Assembly (NCBI GenBank): GCA_036788695.1
Contig: DAIQMY010000001.1
Span: 150,792 to 214,791 of the forward strand
Length of the DNA: 64,000 nt
Direction of reading: 5' to 3'
From: Candidatus Levyibacteriota bacterium
Lineage (GTDB): Bacteria; Patescibacteriota; Microgenomatia; Levybacterales; GWA1-39-11
Shown piece by piece: positions 1 through 26,466 of this stretch. Positions within the stretch are counted from its first letter, which is position 1, and each line of letters begins with the position of its first letter. A program made the translations under genes and the position numbers. The notes under the pieces are model-generated. The model saw nothing but the letters and a program-made list of their open reading frames with translations. It did not search any database and was not told the DNA's origin.

Positions 1-2417
1 CAGGCGGGTGGAGGACCAAACGCTCCGCCGCAGTGCGCAATTAGATTGATTTGAAATAATCCTATACTGTAATCGGGGCATACCTTATTAGTAGCAAATG
101 GATCACTTCCACTTTCAAGGTTACAGATGAGTGAGGCAGTAAGTGCGAGGTCGGGTTGGTTATTAAAATATGGAAGGAGATGTTCATATGAGCAGTATCC
201 TGTTCCTTCTTTAGGTCTGGTGCAGGCATTGGGTGACTGGGAGCCTCCGGGTCCAGCTGTGGATGCGCTTGCTTGTGCCCAGGCAGAGTTTGTTATATTT
301 ATATCAGTTTTTACGGGAAGGACAGTAAAGGTAAATGATGATGCTGCGGCGTTTCCTGAATCTGAAAGATTCCATGACAGTGTGCGGTCAGTTGTGTCAA
401 GCGTATAATTTCCCGAAGTTTTATTATCAACAAGTATAGTATTTTCAGGAATTTGATCAAAAATAATAATATCCTCTTTCCTGACGGTTGAATCTGATGT
501 GAGGGTGTAGGAGATAGTATAGGTAATTTCTCCTATCTCAGCTAATTCTGTTTGTGAAACTGTTTTTTGTAGTGTGAAGCTTGGAATGGGGTTTTGCGTT
601 GGCGGCTGTCCCACGCCTCCCCCTCCCCCTGTCCCACCACCAATTGTGGAACTGCCTGAATTATCAGAGGCAATCGTGATTACAGTCATCACGAACACAA
701 TGAAGAGTAGAATTACGCATGATACGCCAACGGTTACCCCTCCTGCGGGCGTTTTAAGAAAAGTCAGAGCCACTTGACTTACTCCTTTTTTTGCAAGCTG
801 TTGCTCTCCTTTCTTTGCTGCAGATGATGCTGCTTTTTGTGCAGCCTTTTCTCTTAGGCTTTTTCCTAAGCTTCTATTCATGTTTGAAATAGTGGAAAAA
901 GGACTTCTGTCTCGCACGCCACTTCTAAGAATTCGTGATTGCATATGAGGCTGAGAAGTAGATTGGCTAGTTTTTCCTTCCTGTTTTTGTCTTTGTTCTC
1001 GCTGACGCTTATAAAAATCGTAGCTTACGGCTCCAAGTGGGGAGATGACATATCTTCCGTATTTCCAGGTCTTACTTTGCCAAACCTTTGCGTCTCTTAT
1101 TTTTCTTAGCAGCTCAAACCTATCAAAGCCATTTGCAGCAGCTTTTGTTAATATTTTATTGATCTCTATTTTTTGGTATTCCTTTGCAGTTTTTGGTTTT
1201 CTTGCCACCTGTTGCGGTTTATTTGGGGAAGCCGTTTTTTTGGGTAGTATTTTTTTAATTCCCACAACAAAAGAAGGCGGAATTAAATGTTTTGTTTTGC
1301 TATATAAAATCCCAAGAGGCGAATATTTATACACGTTTTTGTACCACTTGAGTGTGGTTGAGGCAGTTTTTTTTGTTGCGGCTAGTGTATTTGATTTTTT
1401 TTGCACTTTTTTTGTATGCAGACTGGTATTATTTTCCTCACTTTTTTCTGTTTTTTCTTTTTTTGAGATATTTCTGTCTGAAATCCCTGCCGCAATTTTT
1501 CGACCCAATTCCCATTCTTTTAAGCGAGGACTTAGTTTGCCCATGAGAAAGCCTAATGGAGTATACTTATATATATCCACATACCCCTTTGCCCCTTTTT
1601 TTGCAGCAGCCTTGAGTGTTTGTCCTGCTTTGGATGGAGTTTTTTTTGGAGTTGTAGGCGTGGGCGGTAACGGTTGTTTTATATTTTCCGGAGACGTGAT
1701 GTTTTTATCTAAATCTTGTGTGGAGGAATCCGTTTGTGAAATTGGTGTGGAGGGTGAATTTTCCGCGGGAGAACTTTGTGCAGATGCGATTTCTTGTGGT
1801 GAATTTGTTTGAGACTGATCAGATTTTGCCTCAGACTGGGCAGTCGTGGTATTAGGTGTGTTCGGGAGCGCTGCCTTTGCAATGGTCTGAGAAGTCTTGC
1901 CTATCTGTTCTTCGTAGTTTCGGTTTTCGTTTACCCTGAATGAGCTATCCTTTTCAAAGGATATAGATGAACTTTTACCAATCCCTCTTTCATTGGTTCC
2001 AGAAGATTCAGGGGGTGTCTTTGCTGATATATTTTCTTCACTTGCGTTTTCTTTTTTGTCTTCCCCATTTTCATTGTGTACCATGTGAACATTGCTATGT
2101 TCTGAGGCGTGCTCTCTCCCATGACCATCTTTCTTGTGGTCTTCTGTTTTTTGTTGGCTCGTTTCCTCCTCCTTTTTGTCTTCGGTATTTTCAGGTTCTA
2201 ACACAAGATTTTTGGTAGCTCGGGCTTTTTCTCTTTCTAGAATATTTATTTTCTTATGTATTTCTGTTTTCTGAGTTTCTCCTTCCTTTAGCGAAAGGGT
2301 ACCGTTTGTAACTGAATCCTCTATGTTGCGCTCGTTAGTCACAAGCTGCTTGATTGAGGAGTCTATATTTTTTATCTGATCCTCGGAAGTAGGGGGTGTA
2401 TCAGAATTGTTTGCCAT
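1..2417 (-). CDS. Partial (C-terminus runs off window edge) large membrane-anchored VirB1-like cell-wall hydrolase: N-terminal charged low-complexity region with three Y-x-Y-x-P-L-G repeats, one TM helix, DUF11-like conserved-repeat beta domain, C-terminal lysozyme-like/lytic transglycosylase motif
   Basis: Manually translated minus strand from ATG (complement of 2415-2417) down to position 1 with no stop (>805 codons). It is not in the ORF track because no stop lies inside the window. TM segment VALTFLKTPAGGVTVGVSCVILLFIVFVMTVITIA. C-terminal NLESGSDPFATNKVCPDYSIGLFQIN resembles the Glu-Ser catalytic and G-L-x-Q-I-N motifs of SLT/lysozyme-like folds. Start is 19 bp downstream of the VirB4 ATPase gene on the same strand. 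Confidence 0.5.
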   Translation of the reverse strand, partial: MANNSDTPPTSEDQIKNIDSSIKQLVTNERNIEDSVTNGTLSLKEGETQKTEIHKKINILEREKARATKNLVLEPENTEDKKEEETSQQKTEDHKKDGHGREHASEHSNVHMVHNENGEDKKENASEENISAKTPPESSGTNERGIGKSSSISFEKDSSFRVNENRNYEEQIGKTSQTIAKAALPNTPNTTTAQSEAKSDQSQTNSPQEIASAQSSPAENSPSTPISQTDSSTQDLDKNITSPENIKQPLPPTPTTPKKTPSKAGQTLKAAAKKGAKGYVDIYKYTPLGFLMGKLSPRLKEWELGRKIAAGISDRNISKKEKTEKSEENNTSLHTKKVQKKSNTLAATKKTASTTLKWYKNVYKYSPLGILYSKTKHLIPPSFVVGIKKILPKKTASPNKPQQVARKPKTAKEYQKIEINKILTKAAANGFDRFELLRKIRDAKVWQSKTWKYGRYVISPLGAVSYDFYKRQREQRQKQEGKTSQSTSQPHMQSRILRSGVRDRSPFSTISNMNRSLGKSLREKAAQKAASSAAKKGEQQLAKKGVSQVALTFLKTPAGGVTVGVSCVILLFIVFVMTVITIASDNSGSSTIGGGTGGGGGVGQPPTQNPIPSFTLQKTVSQTELAEIGEITYTISYTLTSDSTVRKEDIIIFDQIPENTILVDNKTSGNYTLDTTDRTLSWNLSDSGNAAASSFTFTVLPVKTDINITNSAWAQASASTAGPGGSQSPNACTRPKEGTGYCSYEHLLPYFNNQPDLALTASLICNLESGSDPFATNKVCPDYSIGLFQINLIAHCGGAFGPPPA

Positions 2418-2435
2418 ATGATAGTTTTAAAATAA

Positions 2436-4424
2436 TCATTCATTATTCACCTTGTTGTTATCTGTAACAGGAGACGTAATAGGCTGTTGTGTAATTGGTT
2501 GAGATGCCTGTGGAGTAGGTTTCATAGCGGGTTGCGTTAGAGGCGCTTCTGTAGGAGGAGCTTCCTGTTTTGCGTCTGCTTCTTTTATGAATTGTTCTGC
2601 TGCCTGCGTATTTGTTCGTTCTGCCTCATCCAAAATGTCTTGAGGTTTAGAGGTGACCAGTTGATACTCAAAGTTTGATGCCAAAAATTGAGCTGTTAAG
2701 TGGTTTTGCCCTGCAAAAAAAAGTCCCTCTCCAACCTGCGCTGTTAGCAGAAATTGCTTTTCACCTTCTGATAAGTTAAGGGTTGAGGCGAGCGTTTCTA
2801 CCTCAGATGAGTTTTGTTTTAACAGGACCTGCATAGAAGAATTAGATAAGATTGCCTTGCCATAGTCGGAAGACAGGAAATCTTCTATGTCTTGGGTAAG
2901 CGTTGTAACTCCCAGGTAATATTTTCGTGCTCGCTTTGCAATTCCTTGCAAGAATGCAGCAGAGTCAGGATTTTTCATAAGATACCATGCCTCATCTACT
3001 ATTAATATACGTTTTTTCAATTTAGTTCTTACTCTGTTCCAAATAAAATCTAATATTACCTGCATGGCGACTGGCCTAAGAGATTCTTCAAGCTGTTTTA
3101 TTGAAAAAACGGTAAGTTGATTTTTAACATCGTAGTTAGTCTGTGAGTTTAATAGTCCTGAGAACCCTCCTTTGATGTACTTTTCTAGTCTAAACGCAAG
3201 GTCCTTGGCATCTGTTTCTTCCATATTCAAAAGTGTTTTATATAAATCCTCAAGAATGGGTGGTTCATTGCCAAAAGTTGATGGGTCAGGGATTATCCCT
3301 TTTTGCTTGTAACACAAAACGAGCGCGCGGTCTAAAATTGCCTCCTGTGTTGGAGAGAATTCACCAAGCATAATCTTGAGAAGTGAGTGGAGGGATAAAA
3401 ACTTTATTCCAAGCTGCGCTTCTGATCTGTCATCTGAAAGAAGGGCAAACGGATTAATTTTTACCTCAGAGTCTTTTGAAAAAGATATGTATTCTCCATC
3501 GAGCGCATGGCAGAGTGCTTTATATTCATCCTCAGGATCTATGATGAGAATTTCTGTGTCAAACATCATTTGACGCAACACCTCAAGCTTAACTAGAAAT
3601 GATTTTCCAGAACCAGATTTCCCAAAGACAACAGAATTTGCATTCTCAAATGAGAAGCGATCCACAATGATAAGTGAATTATTTAGCGTGTTTACTCCAT
3701 AAAAAATACCGTTTGGTTGAGATATTTCATAGGATGTGAAGGGAAACGTTGAGGCAACGGATGTAGTATCCATGTTTCGGGTAATAAATAATTTATCCTC
3801 CCCCAGGGGGAGTGTTGTTTTAAATCCGTCCTCCATTTGAAGAGTAGCGGGTTTTATAACCAGCAAGTTTGAGGCAAGTAGGGAAGTGAGTTCATTCGTT
3901 TTCTTATCAAGTTCATCAACTGTTTTTGCTGAAAGTGTAACATAGAGTCCAAATTGAAAGAATCGTTCAAGTCCCCGCGCTAACTCTTCACGCAGGGCGA
4001 TCGCGTCCTCAAGGGATGCTCGAACCTTAGGATCAGGTTCTATGCCGTTTTTCATATCTGATTCAATCGTTGCTTCCATTTCTCCAATTTTGCGTTTCAA
4101 ATTGGAAAGAATATCCCGACTTTCAACTGGGTATATAAACATAGATACGTTCATGGTTTCCTTGTAGTCTATAAGTATAGAAAGCCAATTTGGAGAAACT
4201 TCGCGCGGATAGTCAATTACAATAAACGTTCGGTAGAAAGCGTCTCCTACGCGAATATATTTAAAATCTACCTCAACGGATGAGGGAGCAAGAAGATCTA
4301 TCAGAGACACAGACCCACTTTTTAATTTCCCAACATCGTGTGTGATTTGAGGTTGTGGTGCAGATTGAGCTGTTTGTGCAGGTGCACTTTTTTCTGTTTG
4401 TTTTTTCTTTCCTAGTCCTAGCAT
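2436..4424 (-). CDS. virB4: VirB4/TrbE/CagE-family T4SS ATPase, C-terminal ATPase portion (662 aa)
   Basis: Walker A VVFGKSGSGKSF and Walker B RILIVDEAWYL (the DEAW motif is typical of VirB4). N-terminal stretch LIDLLAPSSVEVDFKYIRVGD...YPREVSPNWLSIL resembles the VirB4 middle region. Own RBS AAAGGAG 9 nt upstream of ATG. Confidence 0.8.
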   Translation of the reverse strand: MLGLGKKKQTEKSAPAQTAQSAPQPQITHDVGKLKSGSVSLIDLLAPSSVEVDFKYIRVGDAFYRTFIVIDYPREVSPNWLSILIDYKETMNVSMFIYPVESRDILSNLKRKIGEMEATIESDMKNGIEPDPKVRASLEDAIALREELARGLERFFQFGLYVTLSAKTVDELDKKTNELTSLLASNLLVIKPATLQMEDGFKTTLPLGEDKLFITRNMDTTSVASTFPFTSYEISQPNGIFYGVNTLNNSLIIVDRFSFENANSVVFGKSGSGKSFLVKLEVLRQMMFDTEILIIDPEDEYKALCHALDGEYISFSKDSEVKINPFALLSDDRSEAQLGIKFLSLHSLLKIMLGEFSPTQEAILDRALVLCYKQKGIIPDPSTFGNEPPILEDLYKTLLNMEETDAKDLAFRLEKYIKGGFSGLLNSQTNYDVKNQLTVFSIKQLEESLRPVAMQVILDFIWNRVRTKLKKRILIVDEAWYLMKNPDSAAFLQGIAKRARKYYLGVTTLTQDIEDFLSSDYGKAILSNSSMQVLLKQNSSEVETLASTLNLSEGEKQFLLTAQVGEGLFFAGQNHLTAQFLASNFEYQLVTSKPQDILDEAERTNTQAAEQFIKEADAKQEAPPTEAPLTQPAMKPTPQASQPITQQPITSPVTDNNKVNNE

Positions 4425-4463
4425 GTTTTACAATAACTCCTTTTTGTCGTATGTAGCGTATTT

Positions 4464-5078
4464 CTACACAATAATATTTTTAACGTCACTTGTTGAAAAG
4501 TCCACATTCATGCTTGTCTGGTTGAAAAGTTCAAAAAATACTCGTCCTAACTCTTCAGCCTTAATGACTCTACTGGAAAGCCCTATTCGTTCAATTTGCG
4601 TCATAACATTTGTTCTCTTGCTAGCTATTGCATCCGCGGTGCGTGCTTCGTGCGTCTTTTTACTGCCTCCTGATGTTGGCCCTAGCTCGAGCGCATTAAA
4701 TGGGATTACCACATATGTTTTTTTATCTAGCAGCCCATCTTCTTTTATAAGTTCCTGGATGAAATCCTTGTAGAGCCTTAAGTGCTCAGCCACTCGTGCG
4801 TTTTGGGTAACGGTAATTTTGTGATCAAGAGATGAGACATATGATGAGAGATCAATTCTTTTGGAAACTATCACAATCTGGATTGCAAAAGAGAGAGAAT
4901 TTAAAAGCGACATATACCCATATATACGCGCGTTTTGTTCGTCTTGGGAAAGAAGAAAAAAGTTAACAGATGAAACTTCCAGGATAGAGCATGCATTTTT
5001 TCCTTTTAAAAATACCGTGTCATCCCGAATATCTTCGATCTCAATAAAGGATTGTGTTGTCGATTTAATTTTAGCCAT
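4464..5078 (-). CDS. Stand-alone VirB4 N-terminal (CagE_TrbE_VirB-like) domain protein, 204 aa
   Basis: IEIEDIRDDTVFLKGKNACSILEVSSVNFFLLSQDEQNARIYGYMSLLNSL resembles the N-terminal domain of Gram-positive VirB4 homologs (PrgJ/TcpF/TraE type). Sits directly upstream of the ATPase part on the same strand, separated by a TAG stop and a 39-nt spacer containing an RBS. Confidence 0.5.
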   Translation of the reverse strand: MAKIKSTTQSFIEIEDIRDDTVFLKGKNACSILEVSSVNFFLLSQDEQNARIYGYMSLLNSLSFAIQIVIVSKRIDLSSYVSSLDHKITVTQNARVAEHLRLYKDFIQELIKEDGLLDKKTYVVIPFNALELGPTSGGSKKTHEARTADAIASKRTNVMTQIERIGLSSRVIKAEELGRVFFELFNQTSMNVDFSTSDVKNIIV

Positions 5079-5086
5079 GGGCAGTT

Positions 5087-6154
5087 TTATAAAGTATTTT
5101 GTGCAACTCCAAACAATTCACGTCTTAATTTTTCGCGTTGGTCTACAGATATTACTTGAATAGGTTGAGCCACTGATCCATCAAGCGTTATTCTGGTATC
5201 TTGAAACTCTTGTTTTTTTAACGTGTCCTCAAGGTGCAGGGTATATGTTCCGCTTGGAAGTGGAGTTGCGGCTCTAAAAAAACCATTTGCGTCAGTTCGG
5301 AAGGTTCGGAGTGGAACGTTTTGCGTATCAAGCACTTCCACAATGATGTGGGGGAGCGGTTTTCCTCTTGGGTCAAGTATTTTGCCTTGTAAAATATTGG
5401 CTATGTCTATGCCTCCTACAGATACTTGAGAGGGTGCCACTGGAGGGGTTATCGGTTGCGTTTCAGCTACTGCATGAGGCGTAGGAGGAACAATTTGTGA
5501 TTGAGAAGCAGAAGATTCTGTTTGGCTTGTACTTTCCTGAACAGGAGGGACTGAAGTTTCCGTATGGGGAGCAGATAATTCCCCAGACGTTCCTTCTTGC
5601 GTGTGTATGGCAGAGGCTTGCGTTGTGGGAGTTTTTTCATCGGCCTTAATAACTCTATTCGTAAATCCGCCCTGCTGTGTTGTGCCATCTTTGAAGAGGT
5701 TGCTCACGTTTTCTACTTGAGACTTCTCATCAGCATCAGGCTTAAAATAAGAACTTGCAAGCTGATTAAAAAGTTTTGCTTTTTGTACTGCTGCGCTGTC
5801 TCCTGAATTTGAGTCAGTAACGTTAGTGTGCGACGGAGGGGTAAATGTAAAGTATGGCATTTGTACTCCGTGTTTTTTGTAAATATATTGATTTTCCGCG
5901 GGAATTGCCTTAAAGAAGTTAAAAAGCATCTTATCCATAGGTCTTCCATCAATAGGCACAAACGCAAGACAAAGCCCTACGCCTCCTGAGAGAAGCATAA
6001 AGGGAAGCTTTAGTAAAAACGGAATGGGGAAAAAATAGAACAAGAGTGCAAAAACCCCGCCACCTAAAAGATATAAAAATTGTTTTACCGTAACAGATCC
6101 TATAAGCCTAAATTTAAACCCTGTAACGTCTTGGGGGATAGGATGATTTTCCAT
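5087..6154 (-). CDS. VirB3/PrgI-like small T4SS membrane protein fused to a long Ser/Thr/Pro/Gln-rich linker and a C-terminal transthyretin/carboxypeptidase-regulatory-like beta-sandwich domain
   Basis: N-terminal FKFRLIGSVTVKQFLYLLGGGVFALLFYFFPIPFLLKLPFMLLSGGVGLCLAF gives two TM helices in the VirB3/PrgI arrangement. Position immediately upstream of VirB4 in the conserved VirB3-VirB4 order. C-terminal GKILDPRGKPLPHIIVEVLD...GTYTLHLEDTL resembles a prealbumin-like fold. Confidence 0.4.
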   Translation of the reverse strand: MENHPIPQDVTGFKFRLIGSVTVKQFLYLLGGGVFALLFYFFPIPFLLKLPFMLLSGGVGLCLAFVPIDGRPMDKMLFNFFKAIPAENQYIYKKHGVQMPYFTFTPPSHTNVTDSNSGDSAAVQKAKLFNQLASSYFKPDADEKSQVENVSNLFKDGTTQQGGFTNRVIKADEKTPTTQASAIHTQEGTSGELSAPHTETSVPPVQESTSQTESSASQSQIVPPTPHAVAETQPITPPVAPSQVSVGGIDIANILQGKILDPRGKPLPHIIVEVLDTQNVPLRTFRTDANGFFRAATPLPSGTYTLHLEDTLKKQEFQDTRITLDGSVAQPIQVISVDQREKLRRELFGVAQNTL

Positions 6155-6402
6155 ATATTAAAGGGTATAACGTGAAACATATGCTTTCAAGATTATCAAA
6201 ATAGGTCAAAAAAAAGACATTCTGTGCGTAACGTGAAAAGCGCTGTGCTTTCTTGACACGCGCTTATGTTTTGCCGTACCATAAATAAAGAGAATGTTGT
6301 AAGCAGTTTGTTATTTTGTAGTTAAGAAGAATAGTGAAAAGAAGCCTATAATGCGAGTAAGATAATGATAAAAGAAATACTTTCTAAAATTATTTCATAA
6401 CT

Positions 6403-6741
6403 ATGGAATTTACACCGGAAAAGAAAAAAACAGTAGAGAAAATGATAGTTGATTCAATGATAGACGCTGTAGGGGCAGGAATTGTTCCTGAAGAAGAGCT
6501 TACTAGTATCTCTGATTTTGTTTTAGCTCGAATAGATGCCATAAACAATGAAGATGAATTGGTTATTTTTCTTGTTGAACTTTCTCAAAAATGGTCATTT
6601 TTCTTACCGATTGAACGCTTCATTGAAGGTGAGGCGAAAGAGGCGGAAGATAAAAAGTCAGTAGATAAAGCAGAAAATCTTATAAAGGATGGACAAATAG
6701 ATCAAGCGCTGCAGGTTTTAAAGGCAGCAGAGGGAGCATGA
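6403..6741 (+). CDS. Small acidic hypothetical protein (112 aa), translationally coupled to the next gene
   Basis: ORF with ATG start; its stop overlaps the start of the 645-aa ORF (6741/6743). Highly acidic composition. Confidence 0.45.
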   Translation: MEFTPEKKKTVEKMIVDSMIDAVGAGIVPEEELTSISDFVLARIDAINNEDELVIFLVELSQKWSFFLPIERFIEGEAKEAEDKKSVDKAENLIKDGQIDQALQVLKAAEGA

Positions 6742-6742
6742 T

Positions 6743-8680: not shown

Positions 8681-8699
8681 GGAAAAGTGGGAAGTATGA

Positions 8700-9121: not shown

Positions 9122-9577
9122 TTATTGGCTAGTATTCCGAAGTGTAGGTATTTCAAACCCAGAAGTAAGGTAATTACCGGTAAAGATGTAAAGGACTGCG
9201 TTTATGATAACGTAGGCTAATATAACTATGATAAGTCCTACAATTGCTGCAACTATTGTAGAGCGTGCAGTATCAATTTTTCCTTTATCTCCGCCTGAAA
9301 GAATCCATCGAACGCCTCCATACAAAAGGAAAATAAGGGATAAAACAATTCCGATAATTATAATAGCGTTTATAATAAAAGCAATCAGTTGATTTGGTGA
9401 CACGTCAATATTCCCGATTGATTTAGGTGACTTAATTATTATAGGTTCAATATTCTGAGCAAATGCAGGGGTCGCTAGAACGGACATAAGAAGTGAGCCA
9501 AATGATACTGAGGCGGTATTTATTATTTTTTGCAAACTCATATGATTAATTAGAACATGTTTTTTTTTGCATGTCAA
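9122..9577 (-). CDS. T4SS pilin-like small membrane protein, paralog 2, with an N-terminal Sec-type signal peptide
   Basis: Core IFLLYGGVRWILSGGDKGKIDTARSTIVAAIVGLIIVIL. The track start at 9577 is TTG. An in-frame ATG at 9541 gives MSLQKIINTASVSFGSLLMSVLATPAFA-QN, a classic signal peptide. Confidence 0.6.
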   Translation of the reverse strand: MTCKKKHVLINHMSLQKIINTASVSFGSLLMSVLATPAFAQNIEPIIIKSPKSIGNIDVSPNQLIAFIINAIIIIGIVLSLIFLLYGGVRWILSGGDKGKIDTARSTIVAAIVGLIIVILAYVIINAVLYIFTGNYLTSGFEIPTLRNTSQ

Positions 9578-9583
9578 TAAGCG

Positions 9584-9913: not shown

Positions 9914-9914
9914 A

Positions 9915-10401
9915 TTATTGAAAGCCTGGTATTCGCAAAATGTTTATACCTATAAACTCAAGTATCGCAATTGAGAGAATAATAAATATTAGTCCAGTGA
10001 TTGCTGCGGTTATTTGTTCCCGTGCTTGACCCACTTTTTCTTTGTTTCCCGCAGATGTCATGATGGTATATCCTGCGCGGATAAAGAAAAGGAGAGCTGC
10101 AACTCCTCCGATTGAGAGTACTATGGTAAAAATATCACGTACAAAAAATTGAGGCTCTGTGCTGATCTTTATTCCAAGTGCTGTTGGAATTTTTTTGCAA
10201 TACCCAGTTGTCTGATCTATATCTTGCTTATCGCAAAGCGCTCGGGGTTGAGACCATGGAATTGCAACTCCTAACTCTTTGCCATATGGATCTTTTATTG
10301 CTGTGCCTATTGTTCCTGTTTCTCCGCCGCTTGCTATTGTAAGCGGAATAAAGTAGTAGGTGAAATCGTTTTGTTCGCAGGTAAAAGTGTTTCCATTTTT
10401 T
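9915..10401 (-). CDS. Fourth T4SS pilin-like domain in an open frame of ~160 codons that lacks any ATG/GTG/TTG start; likely the C-terminal domain of a fusion with the upstream secreted protein via a -1 shift at an A8 tract, or else a pseudogene
   Basis: Manual translation of the minus strand gives ...KKIPTALGIKISTEPQFFVRDIFTIVLSIGGVAALLFFIRAGYTIMTSAGNKEKVGQAREQITAAITGLIFIILSIAILEFIGINILRIPGFQ*, which matches the pilin paralogs. The frame stays open upstream to a TAA at about 10423 and overlaps the last 20 codons of the 419-aa ORF in the -1 frame. The only in-frame Met lies inside the TM helix. Confidence 0.45.
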
Positions 10402-11557
10402 TTAAGTCCCGGCCGTCTTTAATTTTAAGAAGATATTTTCCTTCTGTAAGGGTTCCAAATACATATCCGTCGGCATCTTTTGATTCTGAACTGAGGAACA
10501 TATCTATCTCTCCTGTTCCATCTTCGGGTTTGGGGTTTGCGTTTACAACTAAGCATCTAGGCGCACTCTTGTAATCATTATCCAACCCTTCAACCTGTAG
10601 CCAATAATCATTATAAATATTTGAGTCCTTGCCTGATTTTATGTTTCTACCTTTTAAAATAATGGGTAGGGTGAATCCATTTTTTGTACTATTTGTATTT
10701 AGATTTGTGACAGTTTCCGCTTTTGGCTTTATAATCTCAGGGTAAAAGTGAGTTACGTAAAATACCGCATCCGCCTTTACATCATCAGGGCTTACGCTTT
10801 TACTATCTTTCCCCTGCGATAAATATACATGGTATGTTTTTCCTGCGTGAAACCAATCTCCAGAAGTGAACTGATTCGTTTCAGTACAGTCTTCTTTAAG
10901 TGTTTTTTCTCCATCCCCACACAACTTGCTTAGTATAACTATTCCGTCTCTTGGTTGCGCTTCTTGCCAGTCATCCTCCCCACAATCTTGAGGTTTACTT
11001 TTGAGGCAGTAGAAATATTTTGCGTTTTTAGTAGGATTGGAAAGATTAATAAATCGAACAGAAATATAAGGAACGCTTTCATCTATAAATGCTTGATTCG
11101 TTTTTGGATTTTTTGGAAGTCCTCTTGTTGCGCCCAGTCCCTTACAGATATAGTAAGATTCAGTAGTAATGCAGTCACTCAGGTTTGGATTATTAACTTC
11201 ATCTAAAAATCTGTCTTCGTCAGTTTTTCCCTCCTCGTTTGCACATGTACTTTCTGTAAAAAGAGTTGAATCATCAATTGTAATGGTAGATGTTCCTAAA
11301 GGTTTTTGTATTTTGCGATTTTGTGCCGGAATATCAAAGTACCTGCATAAATTTGTGCAGATATTGTCATCAGGGGGGACAAATGAGATGTCCTTTAAGG
11401 GCACTTCTTTCCCTTTAATAGTTTTAGTTACCAATTTTTGGGAAGAACATTCGCTTAGGTCTTGTCCGCTGAATTGAACACCCGTGGCGTATGTTGTAGC
11501 TGTTGTGAAAATTAAAAATAAGAAGAAGACAGGCAATAGCAGGAAAGTTTTCTTCAT
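10334..11557 (-). CDS. Secreted Cys-rich protein (about 407 aa from the internal ATG; the track ORF starts at a TTG at 11593); candidate pilus-associated adhesin
   Basis: Signal peptide MKKTFLLLPVFFLFLIFTTATTYATG. Numerous Cys residues suggest disulfide-rich extracellular domains. The 3' end contains the A8 tract (plus-strand T run 10396-10403) where a -1 shift joins the downstream pilin frame. Confidence 0.55.
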   Translation of the reverse strand: MKKTFLLLPVFFLFLIFTTATTYATGVQFSGQDLSECSSQKLVTKTIKGKEVPLKDISFVPPDDNICTNLCRYFDIPAQNRKIQKPLGTSTITIDDSTLFTESTCANEEGKTDEDRFLDEVNNPNLSDCITTESYYICKGLGATRGLPKNPKTNQAFIDESVPYISVRFINLSNPTKNAKYFYCLKSKPQDCGEDDWQEAQPRDGIVILSKLCGDGEKTLKEDCTETNQFTSGDWFHAGKTYHVYLSQGKDSKSVSPDDVKADAVFYVTHFYPEIIKPKAETVTNLNTNSTKNGFTLPIILKGRNIKSGKDSNIYNDYWLQVEGLDNDYKSAPRCLVVNANPKPEDGTGEIDMFLSSESKDADGYVFGTLTEGKYLLKIKDGRDLKKMETLLPANKTISPTTLFRLQ

Positions 11558-11598
11558 ATAACTATCATAGGAGGTTTTTTGCTCTAAAGTCAAGAAAT

Positions 11599-12930
11599 TT
11601 ATGGAAGAAAGCGGTATCCTCTACCTTTTATAGTAGTAAGATGTGTCGGGTTGTTTGGGTCTTCTTCAATCTTTCGTCTGACTCTGTATATGATTTGATC
11701 AAGTGCTTGGTCGGTCACGCCCTCACGTGTCTTTTCATCTGACCATACAGACTCTATTATTTCCTCTTTTGTACACACCTTATCAGTGTTTTGAATTAAA
11801 AACCGTAACAGTTTAAATTCTGATGGTGAGAGTATATCCGTTAGCGACTCGTTCCCTGCTTTTATTTCTTGAGTATCTGTGTCAAATGTTATTTTCTCAG
11901 TTGCGGGGTGTGGAAAGTGGGACAGATTTTTTTCAAATAAAGGAATTTGAATTTCTCCGTTCTGAACAAGATAAGAGTATTGCAGAAAAGAATCTTTTGG
12001 AGTATCTTTTGGGGATTTGAGAAGTATTTTTTGCTCAATTGGTATAAGCGAATTCCATATTTCAGTCAAAGCTCCTTGAATTGCAGCTTTTGAAAGTAAA
12101 AAAGTTGCCATATCCGCGTGCTTTCCCTCTTGAGCAAGCACAGTTTCAAGGGCTATTCTGGATAATTTTCCATGTCCCCCTGTAAGTTTTATAATTTCTT
12201 TGTGCGTTGCAGGACTAACCGTTCTTCCGCTCGTTTTCTCAAGATAGGCAAAGCGGAAAGCATTCGCCTCAGCGTCACAAAGGGGAAGGAAAACGTGGTT
12301 TCCTACGACAAATTCATAGAAATCCCCGTATATGCTAGGTTCCAATAACTCCTCAAGCGGTCGTTCTAGGGAGAAAACGCAAGAAAATCTATATTTTGCC
12401 CTATTTCGTAAAACATGCAAATCTGTAAAAAAAGAAGAACTTATCTGTGGGAAATAGGTGTCAAATCTATCAAAGAGAAGAACTACGGTTAGCTCCCGCT
12501 CTATAGACAAATAGTCTATGGCACGTTTTAACGCCTGAAAAAGTATTAATTCATCCTGAAAAGAAATCGCCTCCTTGAGAATGTTGTTTACCGCCTCTTG
12601 TTCTTCCTCCATCTTCCGTTCTGAAAAAGAGTAGGAAAGGGAGATAAGAATAAATTTTATTAGTTCGTAAAAATTTCTTCCCTTAATCTCTGATAGATCC
12701 ATATAGACAAAGTGGTACCATTTATAGTTTTCTCCTAGGTGAAGAACGCGCAAGGGATTATTGTAGGCTAAAAGCCGCAAGACGTTTGAACGACCAACTC
12801 CAGGAAGGCCGACAACTTGCGCGGAGTTTCCCTTTTGAACGTATGAGAGAATTTTATCTATCTCATGTGTCCTGGAGGATGGAGGATAAAGAGAGTCAAA
12901 ATGCATGGGTTCTGAGGCTAAAGTAGTCAT
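11599..12930 (-). CDS. Putative transcriptional regulator: N-terminal P-loop NTPase-like domain (AAA/STAND-like) plus C-terminal OmpR/PhoB-type winged-helix DNA-binding domain
   Basis: P-loop-like VVGLPGVGRSNVL. C-terminus TKEEIIESVWSDEKTREGVTDQALDQIIYRVRRKIEEDPNNPTHLTTIKGRGYRF matches the trans_reg_C winged-helix signature (W...V.V.I.RLR.K...........I.TV.G.GYR). Confidence 0.55.
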   Translation of the reverse strand: MTTLASEPMHFDSLYPPSSRTHEIDKILSYVQKGNSAQVVGLPGVGRSNVLRLLAYNNPLRVLHLGENYKWYHFVYMDLSEIKGRNFYELIKFILISLSYSFSERKMEEEQEAVNNILKEAISFQDELILFQALKRAIDYLSIERELTVVLLFDRFDTYFPQISSSFFTDLHVLRNRAKYRFSCVFSLERPLEELLEPSIYGDFYEFVVGNHVFLPLCDAEANAFRFAYLEKTSGRTVSPATHKEIIKLTGGHGKLSRIALETVLAQEGKHADMATFLLSKAAIQGALTEIWNSLIPIEQKILLKSPKDTPKDSFLQYSYLVQNGEIQIPLFEKNLSHFPHPATEKITFDTDTQEIKAGNESLTDILSPSEFKLLRFLIQNTDKVCTKEEIIESVWSDEKTREGVTDQALDQIIYRVRRKIEEDPNNPTHLTTIKGRGYRFLP

Positions 12931-13003
12931 ATGTTAGTTAATTGTAAGCTTCTTATAAGGATAATATCAAGTTTGAAGGTGCATCTTCCCCTATACTTGC
13001 CTC

Positions 13004-16000
13004 ATGAATGAAAGATTTTTGCCACAAGAATTGACAGCAGGAAGGGTATCTTCTACACTTAATGTAAGGAGTACTATGCCAGAGCCACAAAAAGAAGAAC
13101 CTATTGTTCTCAAAAAAAATGAAGTGCATCCTCCCAGGATAAGTAATTCTCCACGACCAGAATCAATACAAGAGCTTATGCAAAGTCAGGCAGAACGTGA
13201 GGCGGCACGAGCCATAATGGAAGAGGCTCGGAAGCAAGGAAAAACATTATCTGAGGATGAAAAAAAAATGATTCTTGCTTCAGGAATTAAATTTCCTATT
13301 TTTGGAGGCGCTGATGTGCCAGAAAATGATTCTTATAATCCAGACAGTGAAGACAGTGAAGAAAACCAGGGCGGAGAGGTTATAAGAAGGGGTTTTGAGC
13401 TGCGACCCCCACGTGATCACGCCCATAACCCGCAACTCCTTGATGAGATAGAAAAATTTAATAGGGTAGCTGAGTTGGGTGTTGATTTTGATGATCTCAA
13501 ACGCGAGGCAGATAAAATCATGAATCTTCAGTCGTTAGACCCAAACAATCCGATTACATCTGAGCAAAGACAAGACCTTATAAGACAGCTTTCTAAGAAA
13601 GGACAAGAGATTGCGGAAGCAAGAATGAATAATCCAGACAGGTTTGGTTTTTACCTTGAAACCCAAGACTTACGAGAATTGGATGATGATCCTATAGCAT
13701 GGCTAGATTCTCAATTTGGTCAAATATACAATTTGTCTAGATTGGGGAATGAGTTAGATTCTCCCGCTTTGCAGCGTGCGCAGACAGAAGTACAAGAAGC
13801 ATCTGCATATCTCCTGAAGAGATTTGGAAAATTCAGAAAAGAGGGGATTAAAAATGCCAAAGACGTTGATCAGGCAAATCAGGATAGTAAGTTGTTGTTG
13901 GAATTTAATGAAACATTTATGATCAGGTTAAACCTCATTTTTGCCAGAACAGCAATTGATCAAAGAAATATGGAGCAAATACAGGGCGCAGTTGGAAGAC
14001 TAAGAACTTTAGGTTTTGCCGGAGCCCAAGCTTTTGACAATGGAGCAGTTGGTGCTATGTATAACCGTATGGAGGCGATGCTTGGGAATTTGCGGCTTGC
14101 AGAAGGTGGGCGTGAGCATCACCTTAATCCTATGTCTTTAAACAAGTTGCAGGAAAGAACTATAGACGAGCAGATAAAACTTGCAAAAGAAGGCGTAGGT
14201 ATATTTGCCGATAGATATAAGGATATCCTGTTGGATCCAAAGAAACGGTTGAATGCTGATGACGTATTAAAACGCGAGATAATCAGGTCTGTTAGAACAG
14301 CATACGATATTTTAGTTGTATCCCAGAGAGTAGCAATAGTTGCCGCTCGCGGTAATTATAGAGGAGACAGGCAGCAGTACTTCTCTGATAATGGTGGTGC
14401 TTTTGCTGTATTTAACTTGGAACAAATGACTATTAATAAGTGGGACCTATTAAATCATGAGGAGCAGGAGTTCTTTGATTTTCTCAAGCTTGACATGGCT
14501 ATTAATAATAAAAAAGGAGTAGATGTATCCGGGTTGACGCGTGAACAATTATTAGACTTAGGAGGAAGGCTATTTAGGGATCTGTATGTAGTTCCTGATT
14601 TTTATTCATCATCCTGGAGAATGAATGGAATGAGGGATCAGTTGGGGAGGGTAATTCAGTATAGGGCTGAAAACGACAAAATGATTGAGAAGTTGATAGA
14701 AGATCCTAATTTTACTCCCGCTGATGAAAGACTAGTGGAGTTGCAACGGCAAATGAGGGCAGACAAAGAAAGTTATATGAAGGCATGGGATGAGCGTAAT
14801 CCTTCAAATAGAATATTGCCGGGAGATCGCGAAATTGCGCAAAGACAATTTTCCCGCCAAATGTTTGAGAAAGTCTTAACCCGTGACCAAAGAGAGCTAT
14901 GCCTGAGAGTTCTGACACCGGACGACATGATGGATGTTATAAATGTTGCAATAAAAAAAGCCGGTACGCAGTTAGGAAAAGAGGTTGGAGACTTTGCTCT
15001 GTTTGTACAGTTGAAGCAAAGTTTGGGACATTTAGGACATCGCTCTGGATCACCGGAAGATATACGTAAAGAGACACGTAACTACAGGACTGAAGTTTGG
15101 GAAAAGATTCAAAAATTTAAAACAGAGGATGTTATACAGTTGATAAGAGGTCGGGCACGACCAGATATATACACGGAAGACTACAATAACTTGCGTGAGT
15201 TATATACGCTTTTTGAGAAAAATGATCCAGAATTGGGAGTACTAACTAATGAGCAGAAAGAATTGCAAAAAACGGGGGGCATAGAAGCATTTCATACATA
15301 TGATAGGTTTATTGAGAAATACGGTTCAGTAATTCAGGCAGTACGTCAAGACGCAATGCGAAACAGCTTAACTGGTCCAGAGCAGGTAGATATGACCAAT
15401 CTAAACCCTCGACAGATTGAAATGGTTAACAGAATGCTAGGGAATGGAGCAGCGGTTACTCTCCAAAATATCTATAAGGACATGAACAAATTTATAAATC
15501 GTCACGGTATTGTCAAGGAACTTGTGACAAGCCATAAGTACATAGATCTTTACAATAGAGTAATAAACGTAGAGGATGTAATGCTTGACACATTAGAATC
15601 AATACCTGAAAACGCGAGCTTCCAGAAGTTATCAGATTATTTCACTGCAGAGTCAGGAGCAGATGCCTTAAAACGAAACTTTAATGATATAGGAAATGCG
15701 GTGAATGCAGGGAACGCATTTATTAAATTTATCACAACTGAAGACAAGGAAGGAAGATTTAAAGAATCCAAAGTTATGAAAGGCGCTGTGGAGGCGTATA
15801 ATGGTCGCGGAAACGGTGCTGAAGTTATGCGATTTACCTATGGAACAGAATTATTATATTCTCTGCAGTACTATTGGGTTAATATGTTGCGTTTAGGTGC
15901 ACTTCCGTTAAGAAAGCCAACCTCAGTGAAGCAGGAGCATTATGGAATTGGAGCAAAATCCTTAACCAGAGAAGATGTCCGTGGAGATTTGGATCATCAC

Positions 16001-16195
16001 AAAACAGAATTTGTAGGACGAGGAGCAGATGCTGATCAGTGGTTTGTCCAATTAGAGGAGCTAACAGGGACAGATATGGAATCTACAATGAAGAGAAATG
16101 CGCTAACACTTCTGATATATGCGTTCTTGGGGATAGTGGTAGGAGCGCCGGTTGGGGCTGCGGCAGCAGCACTGGCAGGAGCGCAGAAAGGATAA
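13004..16195 (+). CDS. Very large hypothetical protein (1063 aa), charged and mostly helical, with an extreme C-terminal hydrophobic tail (LLIYAFLGIVVGAPVGAAAAALAGA); unknown function
   Basis: Uninterrupted 3.2 kb ORF with ATG start, divergent from the regulator gene. No recognisable enzymatic motif. Confidence 0.55.
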   Translation: MNERFLPQELTAGRVSSTLNVRSTMPEPQKEEPIVLKKNEVHPPRISNSPRPESIQELMQSQAEREAARAIMEEARKQGKTLSEDEKKMILASGIKFPIFGGADVPENDSYNPDSEDSEENQGGEVIRRGFELRPPRDHAHNPQLLDEIEKFNRVAELGVDFDDLKREADKIMNLQSLDPNNPITSEQRQDLIRQLSKKGQEIAEARMNNPDRFGFYLETQDLRELDDDPIAWLDSQFGQIYNLSRLGNELDSPALQRAQTEVQEASAYLLKRFGKFRKEGIKNAKDVDQANQDSKLLLEFNETFMIRLNLIFARTAIDQRNMEQIQGAVGRLRTLGFAGAQAFDNGAVGAMYNRMEAMLGNLRLAEGGREHHLNPMSLNKLQERTIDEQIKLAKEGVGIFADRYKDILLDPKKRLNADDVLKREIIRSVRTAYDILVVSQRVAIVAARGNYRGDRQQYFSDNGGAFAVFNLEQMTINKWDLLNHEEQEFFDFLKLDMAINNKKGVDVSGLTREQLLDLGGRLFRDLYVVPDFYSSSWRMNGMRDQLGRVIQYRAENDKMIEKLIEDPNFTPADERLVELQRQMRADKESYMKAWDERNPSNRILPGDREIAQRQFSRQMFEKVLTRDQRELCLRVLTPDDMMDVINVAIKKAGTQLGKEVGDFALFVQLKQSLGHLGHRSGSPEDIRKETRNYRTEVWEKIQKFKTEDVIQLIRGRARPDIYTEDYNNLRELYTLFEKNDPELGVLTNEQKELQKTGGIEAFHTYDRFIEKYGSVIQAVRQDAMRNSLTGPEQVDMTNLNPRQIEMVNRMLGNGAAVTLQNIYKDMNKFINRHGIVKELVTSHKYIDLYNRVINVEDVMLDTLESIPENASFQKLSDYFTAESGADALKRNFNDIGNAVNAGNAFIKFITTEDKEGRFKESKVMKGAVEAYNGRGNGAEVMRFTYGTELLYSLQYYWVNMLRLGALPLRKPTSVKQEHYGIGAKSLTREDVRGDLDHHKTEFVGRGADADQWFVQLEELTGTDMESTMKRNALTLLIYAFLGIVVGAPVGAAAAALAGAQKG

Positions 16196-16207
16196 AACAT
16201 AAAAATT

Positions 16208-17932
16208 TTATCTTCCAAGCATTCCTTTAAAGAATTTTTTCGCTCCTCCAATAGCTTCAGGTGTGGTTGATCCGGCTTTATATTCTGCCTTTGCTCCAAA
16301 CGCCATTTCTTTGACACCACTAATACCTTTTCCTCCTACTGCCTGGGAAGCGCCAAAGGATGTCCTAATATCTTTTAGTCCAAAGTCCATAGCGCCAACT
16401 GCCTTTCGGGTTCTATCAAGTATACTTGGCATGGATATGATAAAGCCAAAGCCTATAAATGCCGCTATAGCAGGACTTCCGCCGACCGCGTCACCTATAA
16501 GCGGAGGAGAGAAGAGCCCACCTTGACTTCCTACGTTGCTCATAATTGTTTTCCCAAGTAATATTACGCCAAACGCCATAGGAAAAACTGATAAATGGCC
16601 CATGAGATGCCGTATCCAACTAGAAAATCCTAATTTACTTCCCGGAAATATTCCAGCAGTTATCCAGAGGGGAGCAACTATTACATCTATGAGAACATAG
16701 ATAAAAGATTTTATAAGCGTAAACCATACGCGGAACAATGAGAATATAATAGCAATGAGTATTATTAAAAATGTAACAATAGTAAAAAGGCTGATAATCG
16801 CTGCCCTGAAGAACGATTCAACAAAATTACACCCTCCTCCCGCAAACAACCCTCCTATGGGCGTATCCCTTAGCCATCCTCCCAATCCTGGCACATATCC
16901 CAATGCTCCTACGCCCGCTGTGACCCCAATTTTCCCTAGATCTACGACTCCACACCCAATAGAGCTGACGGCATTAAAGGGGGTGAAGAAGACCTGGAAA
17001 AAAGATGAGATGGTAGACTCTAAAAAGTCTATTGAGATATTTCCTAAAACCTTGCTAATGCCCCAGGAAGTTTGCCCGGCGATCCCTATAATTCCGGGAA
17101 TATGATTTATACCGCTCAGATTTGGTGTGTCTATACTAAATGATTTGTTTACTACGCCAAATACGGTAGAGGAGGTGCTAACATTTGTTGGTATAAGACT
17201 ATTAAATGTTAGAATAACAAGATAAAGGGTCACATACATAAAATCTATAAGAAGTCCGGCGATTGCGTAAGAAAAAGTGACTAAAATAAGCGCTATTATC
17301 ATTTTGGGGATTTGGTTTTGAATACTCATAACCGTACGTGCATCAATTTTTACCCTGAACATAATTGCAAGTCCCACAATAGTAAACCCTAAAACAAAGG
17401 CGAGGTATGCAATATCTCTAAATCGTGCCCATATTCCAACAAGCGGTCGTAACCTGTCAAATCCTACTCCGTTTTCTTTAGGGTCATTCTCTGCGTAAGC
17501 GCTGCGTGCTACGCCAAAGTTTCCTGCCATATATGCTGCGTAGTCCACTCCGGATACTGGTAGAGTAAAGGTTTCACCTATAAGTCTTCCCATGACCTGT
17601 GTTGCTCCTCCTCCTTGGGCCTCATATCCTATTTGTCCACTTTTTAGATCTACCCCCAAACAGGTTTTTTTTGGGTCTAGAGGGTTATATCCTGAAAGCA
17701 CGCAGACTGTGCTTGCTAGTGTATTGATGAGTGTCGCTTGAGTAAGCGTATTAAGATTTTGAGGAACTTGAGGGTTAACATTTCCATACAGCATTTGATT
17801 ATTCATTGTTGCGACAGTTGGATAGGTAGTTGCAGAAGGAGTAATTATGGGTGCTTGAGCAAGAATGGGTTTTATACTGCTTGCAATAAGAAAGAAGACA
17901 AGAACGTACAGAATATGTTTTAGTTTTCTCAT
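16208..17932 (-). CDS. Polytopic membrane protein, VirB6/TrbL-like candidate, with a signal peptide and an N-terminal extracytoplasmic domain followed by at least six TM helices
   Basis: Internal ATG at 17932 gives signal peptide MRKLKHILYVLVFFLIASSIKPILAQA (the track start at 17977 is TTG). Multiple long hydrophobic helices and Gly-rich loops, and its position in a T4SS-like island. Family assignment is by architecture and context only. Confidence 0.4.
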   Translation of the reverse strand: MRKLKHILYVLVFFLIASSIKPILAQAPIITPSATTYPTVATMNNQMLYGNVNPQVPQNLNTLTQATLINTLASTVCVLSGYNPLDPKKTCLGVDLKSGQIGYEAQGGGATQVMGRLIGETFTLPVSGVDYAAYMAGNFGVARSAYAENDPKENGVGFDRLRPLVGIWARFRDIAYLAFVLGFTIVGLAIMFRVKIDARTVMSIQNQIPKMIIALILVTFSYAIAGLLIDFMYVTLYLVILTFNSLIPTNVSTSSTVFGVVNKSFSIDTPNLSGINHIPGIIGIAGQTSWGISKVLGNISIDFLESTISSFFQVFFTPFNAVSSIGCGVVDLGKIGVTAGVGALGYVPGLGGWLRDTPIGGLFAGGGCNFVESFFRAAIISLFTIVTFLIILIAIIFSLFRVWFTLIKSFIYVLIDVIVAPLWITAGIFPGSKLGFSSWIRHLMGHLSVFPMAFGVILLGKTIMSNVGSQGGLFSPPLIGDAVGGSPAIAAFIGFGFIISMPSILDRTRKAVGAMDFGLKDIRTSFGASQAVGGKGISGVKEMAFGAKAEYKAGSTTPEAIGGAKKFFKGMLGR

Positions 17933-18029
17933 AGGGCAGGTAGTTTTAGTATGGCTCAAAAAGCAACAAAAAGTCAAGGAATATATAAGTAGGGGTTTTT
18001 ATTGACAACTATATATAAAACAGGGTATC

Positions 18030-26459: not shown

Positions 26460-26466
26460 CACTTTA

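Follow-up and report, generated by a model that had tools for sequence, protein, structure and literature searches.

A probable non-conjugative, pilus-bearing type IV secretion system at an origin-proximal locus of Candidatus Levybacteria

What kind of machine is encoded in the first 18 kb of this stretch of Candidatus Levyibacteriota DNA, and does it belong to a mobile element or to the chromosome? The stretch analysed, hereafter the window, comprises 64,000 nucleotides (nt) of contig DAIQMY010000001.1. A preliminary description, made from the letters alone, had recognized at positions 1-17977 an island resembling a type IV secretion system (T4SS), with a Gram-positive-type component set and a non-conjugative use of the kind proposed for the candidate phyla radiation (CPR). 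All the open reading frames (ORFs) that it listed were found in their places. Our analysis indicates that the region is very probably a chromosomal, origin-proximal T4SS of the Patescibacteria type in Candidatus Levybacteria (Microgenomatia), which would bear a pilus and move macromolecules between epibiont and host without conjugation. The non-conjugative CPR reading fits these results, yet the system had already been described (Wang 2023; Quinonero-Coronel 2025); the class was published between 2023 and 2025 and the locus represents no new kind of system.

Two studies provide the frame for this analysis. Wang et al. (2023) showed by transposon sequencing (Tn-seq) that a pilin-bearing, relaxase-less, Gram-positive-like T4SS encoded near the genome start is essential for the epibiotic growth of Southlakia, and that this T4SS has no recognisable relaxase or coupling proteins (PMC10633639). 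Quinonero-Coronel et al. (2025) defined a Patescibacteria clade of VirB4 with TrsD, PrgI, VirB2 arrays of 2-11 genes, proximity to dnaA, distant coupling proteins and almost no relaxases (PMC12102498). In their survey VirB6 was scarce in Microgenomatia, and VirB3 and VirB1 were rarely linked to virB4 there (PMC12102498). A non-conjugative role in host interaction has been proposed for this clade (PMC10633639; PMC12102498), and a 2025 review gives the same picture as both papers (PMC12857230).

We compared the locus with two separate sets of 80 loci. A GTDB scan with the family of the 574-amino-acid (aa) membrane protein of the locus returned 395 species genomes, nearly all Levybacteria, from which 80 loci were fetched; the other 80 came from a metagenome scan with VirB4. 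The same DNA is also present in a 193-kb ENA contig (L001), which differs from the window by 1 nt in 14.4 kb and extends past its left edge. In NCBI, the identical proteins belong to a Candidatus Levybacteria assembly (HMS22277-HMS22284). Pfam calls were judged against curated cut-offs or gathering scores, and NCBIfam, PDB and Rfam were used as well. The features of the locus are listed in Table 1.

The identity of the motor was clear. The 662-aa VirB4 matched P-loop_TraG (5.9e-37) and AAA_10 (2.2e-16) above the curated cut-offs, and DUF87 as well, and the first N-terminal sub-domain was absent from its chain. The adjacent 204-aa protein matched the NCBIfam models VirB4_plasma (2.3e-10) and TrsD (1.1e-5) and has a precomputed TraC-like match (PF26593). 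It aligned with residues 51-193 of a full-length clostridial VirB4 (E=5e-7), and the 662-aa protein spanned approximately residues 207-784 of the same one-chain protein. Because the two proteins cover successive parts of one clostridial VirB4, the VirB4 is truly split, as had been proposed. On these alignments, its N-terminal domain is a separate TrsD-like polypeptide, as in TrsD-containing systems. The TrsD gene lay between prgI and virB4 in 71 of the 80 metagenome loci, and the complete PrgI-TrsD-VirB4 arrangement was found in 70 of them. The 355-aa PrgI also scored above its cut-off (9e-8, 33 bits against 27), so that the earlier calls of both VirB4 and PrgI stood. It consists of two transmembrane (TM) segments, a linker rich in Ser, Thr and Pro, and a C-terminal beta-sandwich resembling CarboxypepD_reg (5.1e-9); such long PrgI forms, mostly of 270-480 aa, are usual in related loci. 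Among 7720 relatives of the VirB4 protein, the best listed were 70-99% identical and carried the source names Levybacteria or Patescibacteria, while the best plasmid matches were CD1110 family ATPases of Bacillota and Actinomycetota (29-37% identity). Homology identifies the core as a monoderm inner-membrane machine derived from the MPF_FATA type, with a VirB4/TrsD/PrgI motor and VirB2-type pilins. The Gram-positive-type component set was thus borne out by the MPF_FATA-like components, by the CD1110 family as nearest plasmid VirB4 and by a gene order like that of a clostridial conjugative plasmid.

The locus encodes four T4SS_pilin domains (PF18895), which scored 28-46 bits against a cut-off of 26.6 and form two-helix hairpins with a basic loop. 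The preliminary description had read them as four tandem pilins, with a separate, putative Cys-rich adhesin. The four domains were confirmed, but the fourth pilin and the adhesin turned out to be one gene, so that the array consists of three pilins and a fusion. In the window, the frame at 9915-10343 (minus strand) is an open pilin frame without a start codon of its own, and it overlaps the end of the Cys-rich ORF at 10334-11557 (minus strand). At position 10402 the window has a run of eight T (T8) where the ENA contig has TTTTTTCTT, one base fewer in the window; this is the sole difference in the 14.4 kb shared with the independent ENA assembly. The extra base joins the two frames into a single gene for a 547-aa protein, composed of a signal peptide, a variable Cys-rich ectodomain of about 440 aa (14 Cys) and a C-terminal T4SS_pilin domain (residues 473-535, 1.2e-8), whereas the deletion leaves a 407-aa ORF and the start-less pilin frame. 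The intact protein was present on three contigs of the Logan and ENA assemblies; the 407-aa truncation occurred only in the NCBI third-party annotation (TPA) metagenome-assembled genome (MAG). Relatives read through the site, which lies in a conserved segment (CExNDFTYYFIPFTI...KDPYGK). On the coding strand the deletion makes a run of eight A (A8), and runs of this type are typical of assembly or polishing errors, or of population heterogeneity. For the break at 10402, a mistake in assembly or a minor variant is the likeliest origin.

The pilin array was kept across the 80 GTDB loci, with two to five pilins after the fusion pilin. A match to the fusion protein was found at the regulator-side position of the array in 64 of these 80 loci, with a hypervariable N-domain; all homologues with a recognisable start carried a signal peptide. 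An NCBIfam match to the pilin-like Mbov_0395 family of mycoplasma integrative conjugative elements (ICEs) was also obtained (2.1e-5), far below the family cut-off. Since the N-terminus of the pilin faces outward and only the long form has a Sec signal, we infer that the fusion protein may act as a tip or minor adhesin.

We then considered whether the locus behaves as an island. Its gene order was constant in the 80 GTDB loci, each part being found where the contig reached: the membrane protein, a giant protein on the opposite strand, a regulator, the fusion pilin, the pilins, PrgI, TrsD and VirB4. In the ENA contig, dnaN and dnaA are found 4.2-6.8 kb downstream of virB4, which places them about 2 kb outside the left end of the window. 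Among the metagenome loci, dnaN-dnaA was found 0.3-5 kb downstream of PrgI-TrsD-VirB4 in 41-48 of the 80, including nearly all the long ones. In the GTDB set, DUF5667-NrdR-RNR stood upstream in about 22 of the 80 Levybacteria loci. Identity to the proteins of the window was 55-75% for VirB4, 48-60% for DnaA, 45-63% for the regulator, 37-62% for TrsD, 35-62% for the pilins and 30-54% for the membrane protein. For the N-domain of the fusion and for the giant it was around 30% over part of the length only, and the 645-aa and VirB1-like proteins were at or near the detection limit in relatives. Judged by these values, the core motor of the locus evolves slowly and its periphery fast, and the locus is vertically inherited. 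Many GTDB records with a Levybacteria-type locus (L005, L007, L008 and others) bear the title 'uncultured Gammaproteobacteria bacterium', evidently a placeholder or an incorrect taxonomic label.

No relaxase, integrase or replication-initiator Pfam family was detected among the called genes of the window and of the 7.5 kb to its left (71 kb in all). Repeats of the oriT or island-border type were sought in 1-18.6 kb, but only short pairs as expected by chance turned up, and no tRNA was found at the locus borders. The absence of relaxase, oriT and replication genes, noted in the preliminary description, thus holds within 1-17977, but dnaN-dnaA lies just beyond the left edge and a coupling-protein (T4CP)-like ATPase is encoded further right. 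This ATPase scored above the cut-offs of TraG-D_C (26 bits against 22) and TrwB_AAD_bind (24.1 bits against 20.5) and has an N-terminal TM segment. Its gene lies 13 kb from the T4SS genes, beside the tRNA-Ile gene at 31075-31151; homologues (E ~1e-118 to 1e-129) are found directly upstream of prgI in three more distant Patescibacteria loci (L143, L149 and L159). Taken together, gene order, flanks and conservation indicate that the locus is a vertically kept, origin-proximal chromosomal system and not a mobile island. The term island did not survive the comparison: the order and the dnaN-dnaA and NrdR-RNR flanks recur across Levybacteria and related lineages, and VirB4 is as conserved as DnaA.

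The membrane-protein and hydrolase candidates required indirect evidence. The 574-aa protein has a signal or anchor segment, an ectodomain of about 130 aa with conserved (invariant) Cys residues and about six long TM helices, making some seven hydrophobic segments in all. Its family has at least 854 members, all annotated as 'hypothetical' and devoid of Pfam domains, and is kept at one end of the locus. Comparison with VirB6, TrbL and CD1112 gave no Pfam or NCBIfam match and no PDB match by phmmer or profile search, and hhalign of the family against CD1112 returned a probability of 0.2%. The predicted fold retrieved TrwI (VirB6) first, with a similarity below significance. Position, topology and this weak but specific fold signal suggest that the protein is probably the VirB6 equivalent, short of demonstrating membership of the family. 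The polytopic topology previously described was confirmed, while homology to VirB6 at the sequence or profile level was not found.

The VirB1-like protein, whose ORF runs off the window, is 863 aa long in the ENA contig. A basic low-complexity N-terminal region of about 550 aa precedes a single TM segment (residues 553-588), followed by a Gly-rich linker, a beta domain and a lysozyme-like C-terminal domain. The match to SLT_3 was sub-threshold (E=0.011, 16.6 bits against a cut-off of 27), LESGS and GLFQIN motifs were read by eye, and the lysozyme-like domain had no PDB match by sequence; the earlier VirB1-like call is thus weakly supported. Sequence homologues were present in just 3 of the 80 metagenome loci. 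A bitopic gene of 420-1330 aa was found downstream of VirB4 in all 12 of the more distant long loci inspected, and the bitopic protein at this position may be a wall hydrolase. Between the VirB1-like gene and dnaN, the ENA contig also encodes three small signal-anchored proteins of 155, 198 and 157 aa (14602-16139 of L001). In other loci, proteins of 470-774 aa encoded downstream of virB4 end in a domain of the 198-aa type.

We next examined how the locus might be controlled. The 443-aa protein, described earlier as a P-loop and winged-helix regulator, matched Trans_reg_C (6.7e-21), and 55 response-regulator DNA-binding domains of the PDB matched its residues 328-443, to which all PDB matches were confined. 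The P-loop part was less clear: residues 1-340 matched no receiver (REC) model and instead showed a weak AAA_16 match (0.0034) and conserved GxPGVGRS and hhhhDRF motifs. The lack of a receiver domain, together with these N-terminal features, indicates an ATPase-wHTH (winged helix-turn-helix) one-component protein. A two-component response regulator was ruled out, since the OmpR/PhoB-type wHTH is present without a receiver domain. The regulator was found in 58 of the 80 GTDB loci (E ~1e-120 to 1e-180) with its motifs conserved, and calling it a lineage-specific addition was an overstatement. Its Walker-A-like motif GxPGVGRS (residues ~41-49), kept in most of 54 homologues, has Arg in place of the usual Lys. 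P-loop NTPases normally have Lys at this position. The protein may, judging from this motif, bind nucleotide rather than hydrolyse it.

The regulator gene has its own conserved promoter (TTGATA-N17/18-TACAAT); promoter-like sites were not in excess (50 observed against 44.6 in shuffled sequences). A second, strongly conserved element precedes prgI. It consists of a TTTTCACG box (TTTTCAC(G/A)), followed after about 61 nt by TTTGACCyAyTTTGATAATCTTGmAA-N8-TTTTTCACGTTATAy, 10-45 nt before the prgI ATG. TTTGATAATCTTG occurred 16 times in 1.3 Mb of loci against 0.04 expected, at least 10 of the occurrences being upstream of prgI, and the block was found at the same position in about 26 of 61 testable loci. 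It is a candidate promoter and operator of the prgI-trsD-virB4 operon. The proposal that the block is the operator of the 443-aa regulator was unsupported, as 15 of the 36 regulator-bearing loci had the motif, and so did 11 of the 25 that lack the regulator. Being found also in loci with no detectable regulator gene, it may be a promoter or operator widely common to these lineages. An RNA leader or riboswitch was also rejected: RNAalifold gave 0 pairs and Rfam no match.

The largest protein of the locus is the 1063-aa giant, whose gene diverges from the regulator gene and converges at its 3' end on the VirB6-like gene. It has a C-terminal TM segment and no signal peptide, and it matched no family and no PDB sequence. 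The AlphaFold2 (AF2) model is all-alpha, with 44 helices (pLDDT 61.5). A HEAT/ARM-like solenoid fold was considered and not retained, as Foldseek returned generic alpha-solenoids only (probability at most 0.2), and no fold family was assigned. A word index gave eight homologues, and 112 representative clusters were found among 1.84e9. A single ORF of 770-1730 aa on the opposite strand occupied the position of the giant in all 68 Levybacteria loci with both flanking genes, the one of locus L033 being split by a run of N, and 67 of the 68 positional giants formed one family at E<1e-10. An N-terminal signal is missing from these proteins, and their tail is hydrophobic or amphipathic. The giants diverge rapidly; their genes always have the VirB6-like gene on one side and, on the other, the regulator gene or, in loci that lack it, the fusion-pilin gene. 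Other Patescibacteria classes have giants at the same position without detectable homology, which are positional analogues only.

A small acidic protein of 112 aa and the 645-aa protein are encoded together between prgI and the pilins. The 645-aa protein has 34% charged residues, one C-terminal hydrophobic segment and at most a weak SMC-like coiled-coil match; its homologues were found in 13 of the 80 GTDB loci, and hhalign rejected the idea that it is a paralogue of the giant. The family of the acidic protein was present in 21 of 80 loci, and in 17 of these an ORF of 380-814 aa followed directly on the same strand. The place of the pair varied: in some genomes it separated the pilins from prgI, in others it stood upstream of the VirB6-like gene. 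By analogy it resembles a movable two-gene cassette in which the 645-aa protein would be the variable, cargo-like partner, and it recalls chaperone-substrate pairs.

These results suggest how the machine could work. Each pilin would enter the membrane as a hairpin of two helices whose basic loop stays inside, and VirB4, TrsD and PrgI would extract the pilins and polymerise them on the VirB6-like platform. The pilus would cross the wall where the hydrolase has opened it. The first gene of the array would display a hypervariable, Sec-exported Cys-rich domain on the outward N-terminus of a pilin domain, and this fusion protein could bind the host cell as a tip or minor subunit, taking the functional place of VirB5 or adhesins. 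The machine would then move proteins or other macromolecules between epibiont and host, with no conjugation of DNA. The ATPase-wHTH protein would be the dedicated one-component regulator of the locus, while the giant and the pair of 112-aa and 645-aa proteins might be substrates with a chaperone, or cytoplasmic accessory parts.

Several observations weigh against this interpretation. The VirB6 and VirB1 assignments are below statistical thresholds, no VirB8-like protein was identified at the locus, and the fusion pilin gene is frameshifted in this assembly. The block upstream of prgI does not co-vary with the regulator gene. The T4CP homologue encoded in the genome leaves room for transfer of DNA or nucleoprotein. 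Finally, we only infer the role of the tip adhesin, the targets of the regulator and the role of the giants as effectors or scaffold.

The lineage of VirB4, which derives from monoderm conjugation systems, and the VirD4/TraG-like ATPase 13 kb away could suggest that the locus is an ICE or its remnant, that is, a mobile DNA-transferring T4SS island whose relaxase and oriT lie elsewhere on the chromosome. The GC content of 1-18 kb (about 0.40) is also somewhat above that of the rest of the window (0.31-0.39). We consider this explanation extremely unlikely, because in many species-level genomes the order is the same and the flanks remain dnaN-dnaA and NrdR-RNR, because the evolution of VirB4 is as slow as that of DnaA, and because neither integrase, relaxase and Rep families (71 kb) nor a flanking tRNA or direct repeats were found. 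Moreover, the 2025 survey detected relaxases in just 103 Patescibacteria genomes, seldom close to virB4 (PMC12102498). Nor does the frameshift argue convincingly for a decaying locus, in which the adhesin-pilin gene would be a pseudogene and the system non-functional. The 1-nt deletion does break a frame conserved in relatives, and the NCBI record does contain the 407-aa truncation. However, the deletion is the only difference from the independent ENA assembly, intact copies exist in the Logan and ENA assemblies, all other genes are intact and the A8 run is of the kind that assembly, polishing or population heterogeneity produces; decay is thus very unlikely.

A machine for DNA uptake or release, comparable to ComB or the T4SS of the Neisseria gonococcal genetic island (GGI), would feed a cell auxotrophic for nucleotides. 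CPR cells are unable to make nucleotides, NrdR-RNR stands beside it in about 22 loci, and a T4CP-like ATPase is encoded. In Patescibacteria of the class ABY1, comF, recG and radA co-localise with T4SS loci (PMC12102498). On the other hand, competence of Southlakia needs comEC and type IV pili, and the deletion of comEC is viable while the T4SS is essential (PMC12857230). The locus itself contains no competence genes, and its adjacency to NrdR-RNR may just reflect origin-proximal housekeeping genes. We regard DNA uptake or release as improbable, and favour the non-conjugative epibiont-host system set out above.

Patescibacteria account for a large part of bacterial diversity, and to our knowledge no T4SS other than theirs is known to be essential to the bacterium encoding it. 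The locus provides a clean map of the T4SS for Levybacteria (Microgenomatia), where surveys with hidden Markov models (HMMs) barely found VirB6, VirB3 and VirB1 near virB4. Candidates for three functions also emerge: the pilin-fused variable domain may serve host recognition, the giant and the acidic cassette may be cargo or accessory parts, and the ATPase-wHTH regulator and the promoter block may exert control. A more far-reaching proposal, which we regard as doubtful, takes three functional modules of the locus as undescribed. The VirB2-fused hypervariable adhesin would prime or cap the pilus and replace adhesins of the VirB5 or PrgB type. The giant, and the cassette of an acidic chaperone with a large tail-anchored protein, would be translocated effectors or proteins inserting in the host membrane rather than structural parts, and the regulator would be an ATP-binding one-component protein of the OmpR type that turns the system on. 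If true, these modules would turn the locus into a self-contained organelle aimed at the host, in which a slow-evolving motor carries a diversifying layer of host contact and effectors.

Table 1. Features of the T4SS locus and the coupling-protein homologue in the window.
Feature	Positions	Strand	Evidence or remark
VirB1-like bitopic protein	1-2417	-	805 of 863 codons in window; C-terminal end cut by left edge
VirB4-type ATPase, 662 aa	2436-4424	-	P-loop_TraG, AAA_10, DUF87
TrsD-like protein, 204 aa	4464-5078	-	NCBIfam VirB4_plasma, TrsD
PrgI/VirB3-like protein, 355 aa	5087-6154	-	PrgI, CarboxypepD_reg
Conserved non-coding DNA block	6155-6260	-	Upstream of prgI
Small acidic protein, 112 aa, pI 4.35	6403-6741	+	Family comparison
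Charged helical/coiled-coil protein, 645 aa	6743-8680	+	Weak SMC-like coiled-coil match
VirB2-like pilin, 118 aa	8700-9056	-	T4SS_pilin 5.8e-12; two-TM hairpin
VirB2-like pilin, 139 aa from ATG, signal peptide	9122-9541	-	T4SS_pilin 5.6e-7; gene call in L001
VirB2-like pilin, 109 aa	9584-9913	-	T4SS_pilin 2.1e-6
Adhesin-pilin fusion gene, 547 aa intact	9915-11557	-	T4SS_pilin 1.2e-8; frameshifted in window
One-component regulator, 443 aa	11599-12930	-	Trans_reg_C 6.7e-21
Giant all-alpha protein, 1063 aa	13004-16195	+	No family match; positional conservation
Polytopic membrane protein, 574 aa from ATG, candidate VirB6 equivalent	16208-17932	-	Position, topology, fold
VirD4/TraG-like coupling-protein homologue, 810 aa	31206-33638	-	TraG-D_C, TrwB_AAD_bind; outside 1-17977

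The remainder of the window contains housekeeping genes: NrdR-RNR, SmpB, a transfer-messenger RNA (tmRNA), tRNAs, purine synthesis and parts of a type IV pilus. The SmpB gene is directly followed by a full-length tmRNA (25526-26462; Rfam, 105.8 bits). ARAGORN identified the tRNA-Ile at 31075-31151 with the anticodon TAT, and a tRNA-Ser with the anticodon ACT (34412-34497) beside a tRNA-Ser GCT on the other strand. The anticodons TAT (tRNA-Ile) and ACT (tRNA-Ser) are uncommon in bacteria. A nickel superoxide dismutase gene (Sod_Ni) at 41499-42241 (plus strand) precedes a short gene for an S24/S26-type peptidase, presumably the maturation protease. On the minus strand, positions 54439-57322 encode parts of a type IV pilus locus, where PilN-like and PilO-like genes precede a 112-aa ORF and the gene of a 456-aa surface protein (fn3/Big_13). 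The type IV pilus is the other host-contact machine of Patescibacteria.

How does the locus compare with known systems? The conjugative systems of monoderm plasmids share part of its components. The CTn2/CD1110-type systems, such as that of Clostridium botulinum pCDC3875, have a VirB4 with 29-37% identity and the order VirB6-PrgI-x-VirB4-x-large bitopic SLT hydrolase; pGO1 Trs, which belongs with pCF10 Prg to the same comparison group, has a TrsD-type protein. These plasmid systems differ in being mobile, with an adjacent VirD4, a MOBP relaxase, a one-chain VirB4 of 797 aa and no pilins, whereas the locus has pilins, a split VirB4, a fixed chromosomal position and no relaxase in the 71 kb. The VirB2/VirB5/VirB6 stalk and pilus of R388 Trw (PDB 7o3v/8rt9) resemble it in their two-helix pilins with a basic loop and, below significance, in a polytopic platform protein (TrwI). 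Unlike this Gram-negative system, the locus is without VirB5, VirB7, VirB9, VirB10 and an outer membrane, and its adhesin is apparently fused to a pilin instead of being a VirB5. The ICE systems of Mycoplasma are similar in the NCBIfam matches of the fusion pilin (Mbov_0395, 2.1e-5) and of the TrsD-like protein (Mbov_0397, 2.3e-10), with scores far below the cut-offs. Mycoplasma and the organism studied here are both wall-reduced or ultrasmall monoderms with pilin-like T4SS proteins, but the ICE systems are mobile and transfer DNA.

Closer similarities were found with Southlakia epibionticum ML1, which belongs to the class Saccharimonadia whereas the organism studied here belongs to Microgenomatia. 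Its cluster (SEML1_0006-0019) is likewise origin-proximal and encodes VirB4 and a lysozyme-type hydrolase, a PrgI-family protein that is again long (300 aa), a small protein whose gene stands between those of PrgI and VirB4, and six PF18895 pilins, but no relaxase. It also has several essential hypothetical proteins of about 1000 aa (998-1113 aa), one of them VirB6-like with an ARM-repeat part, so that the earlier statement that the giants have no described counterparts was overstated. That VirB6-like protein is a single chain of 1088 aa, whereas the 574-aa membrane protein and the alpha-helical 1063-aa neighbour are separate here. Southlakia has an NTF2-like (VirB8-like) protein, of which no equivalent was found at the locus. 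As far as the parts of its tables compared here by description, not by sequence, go, the Southlakia cluster lists neither an ATPase-wHTH regulator nor an adhesin-pilin fusion; these parts of the tables likewise mention no fixed giant family, acidic cassette or promoter block (PMC10633639). The text of the 2025 survey does not mention the regulator, the giant proteins, fused pilins or the cis element (PMC12102498). The locus departs from that survey in that PrgI is adjacent and that candidate VirB6 and VirB1 equivalents are present, although too divergent for HMMs. With the clade itself the locus agrees on every point: a VirB4 related to MPF_FATA, adjacent TrsD and PrgI, a VirB2 array, no relaxase in the 71 kb, a T4CP away from virB4, and dnaA and dnaN nearby.

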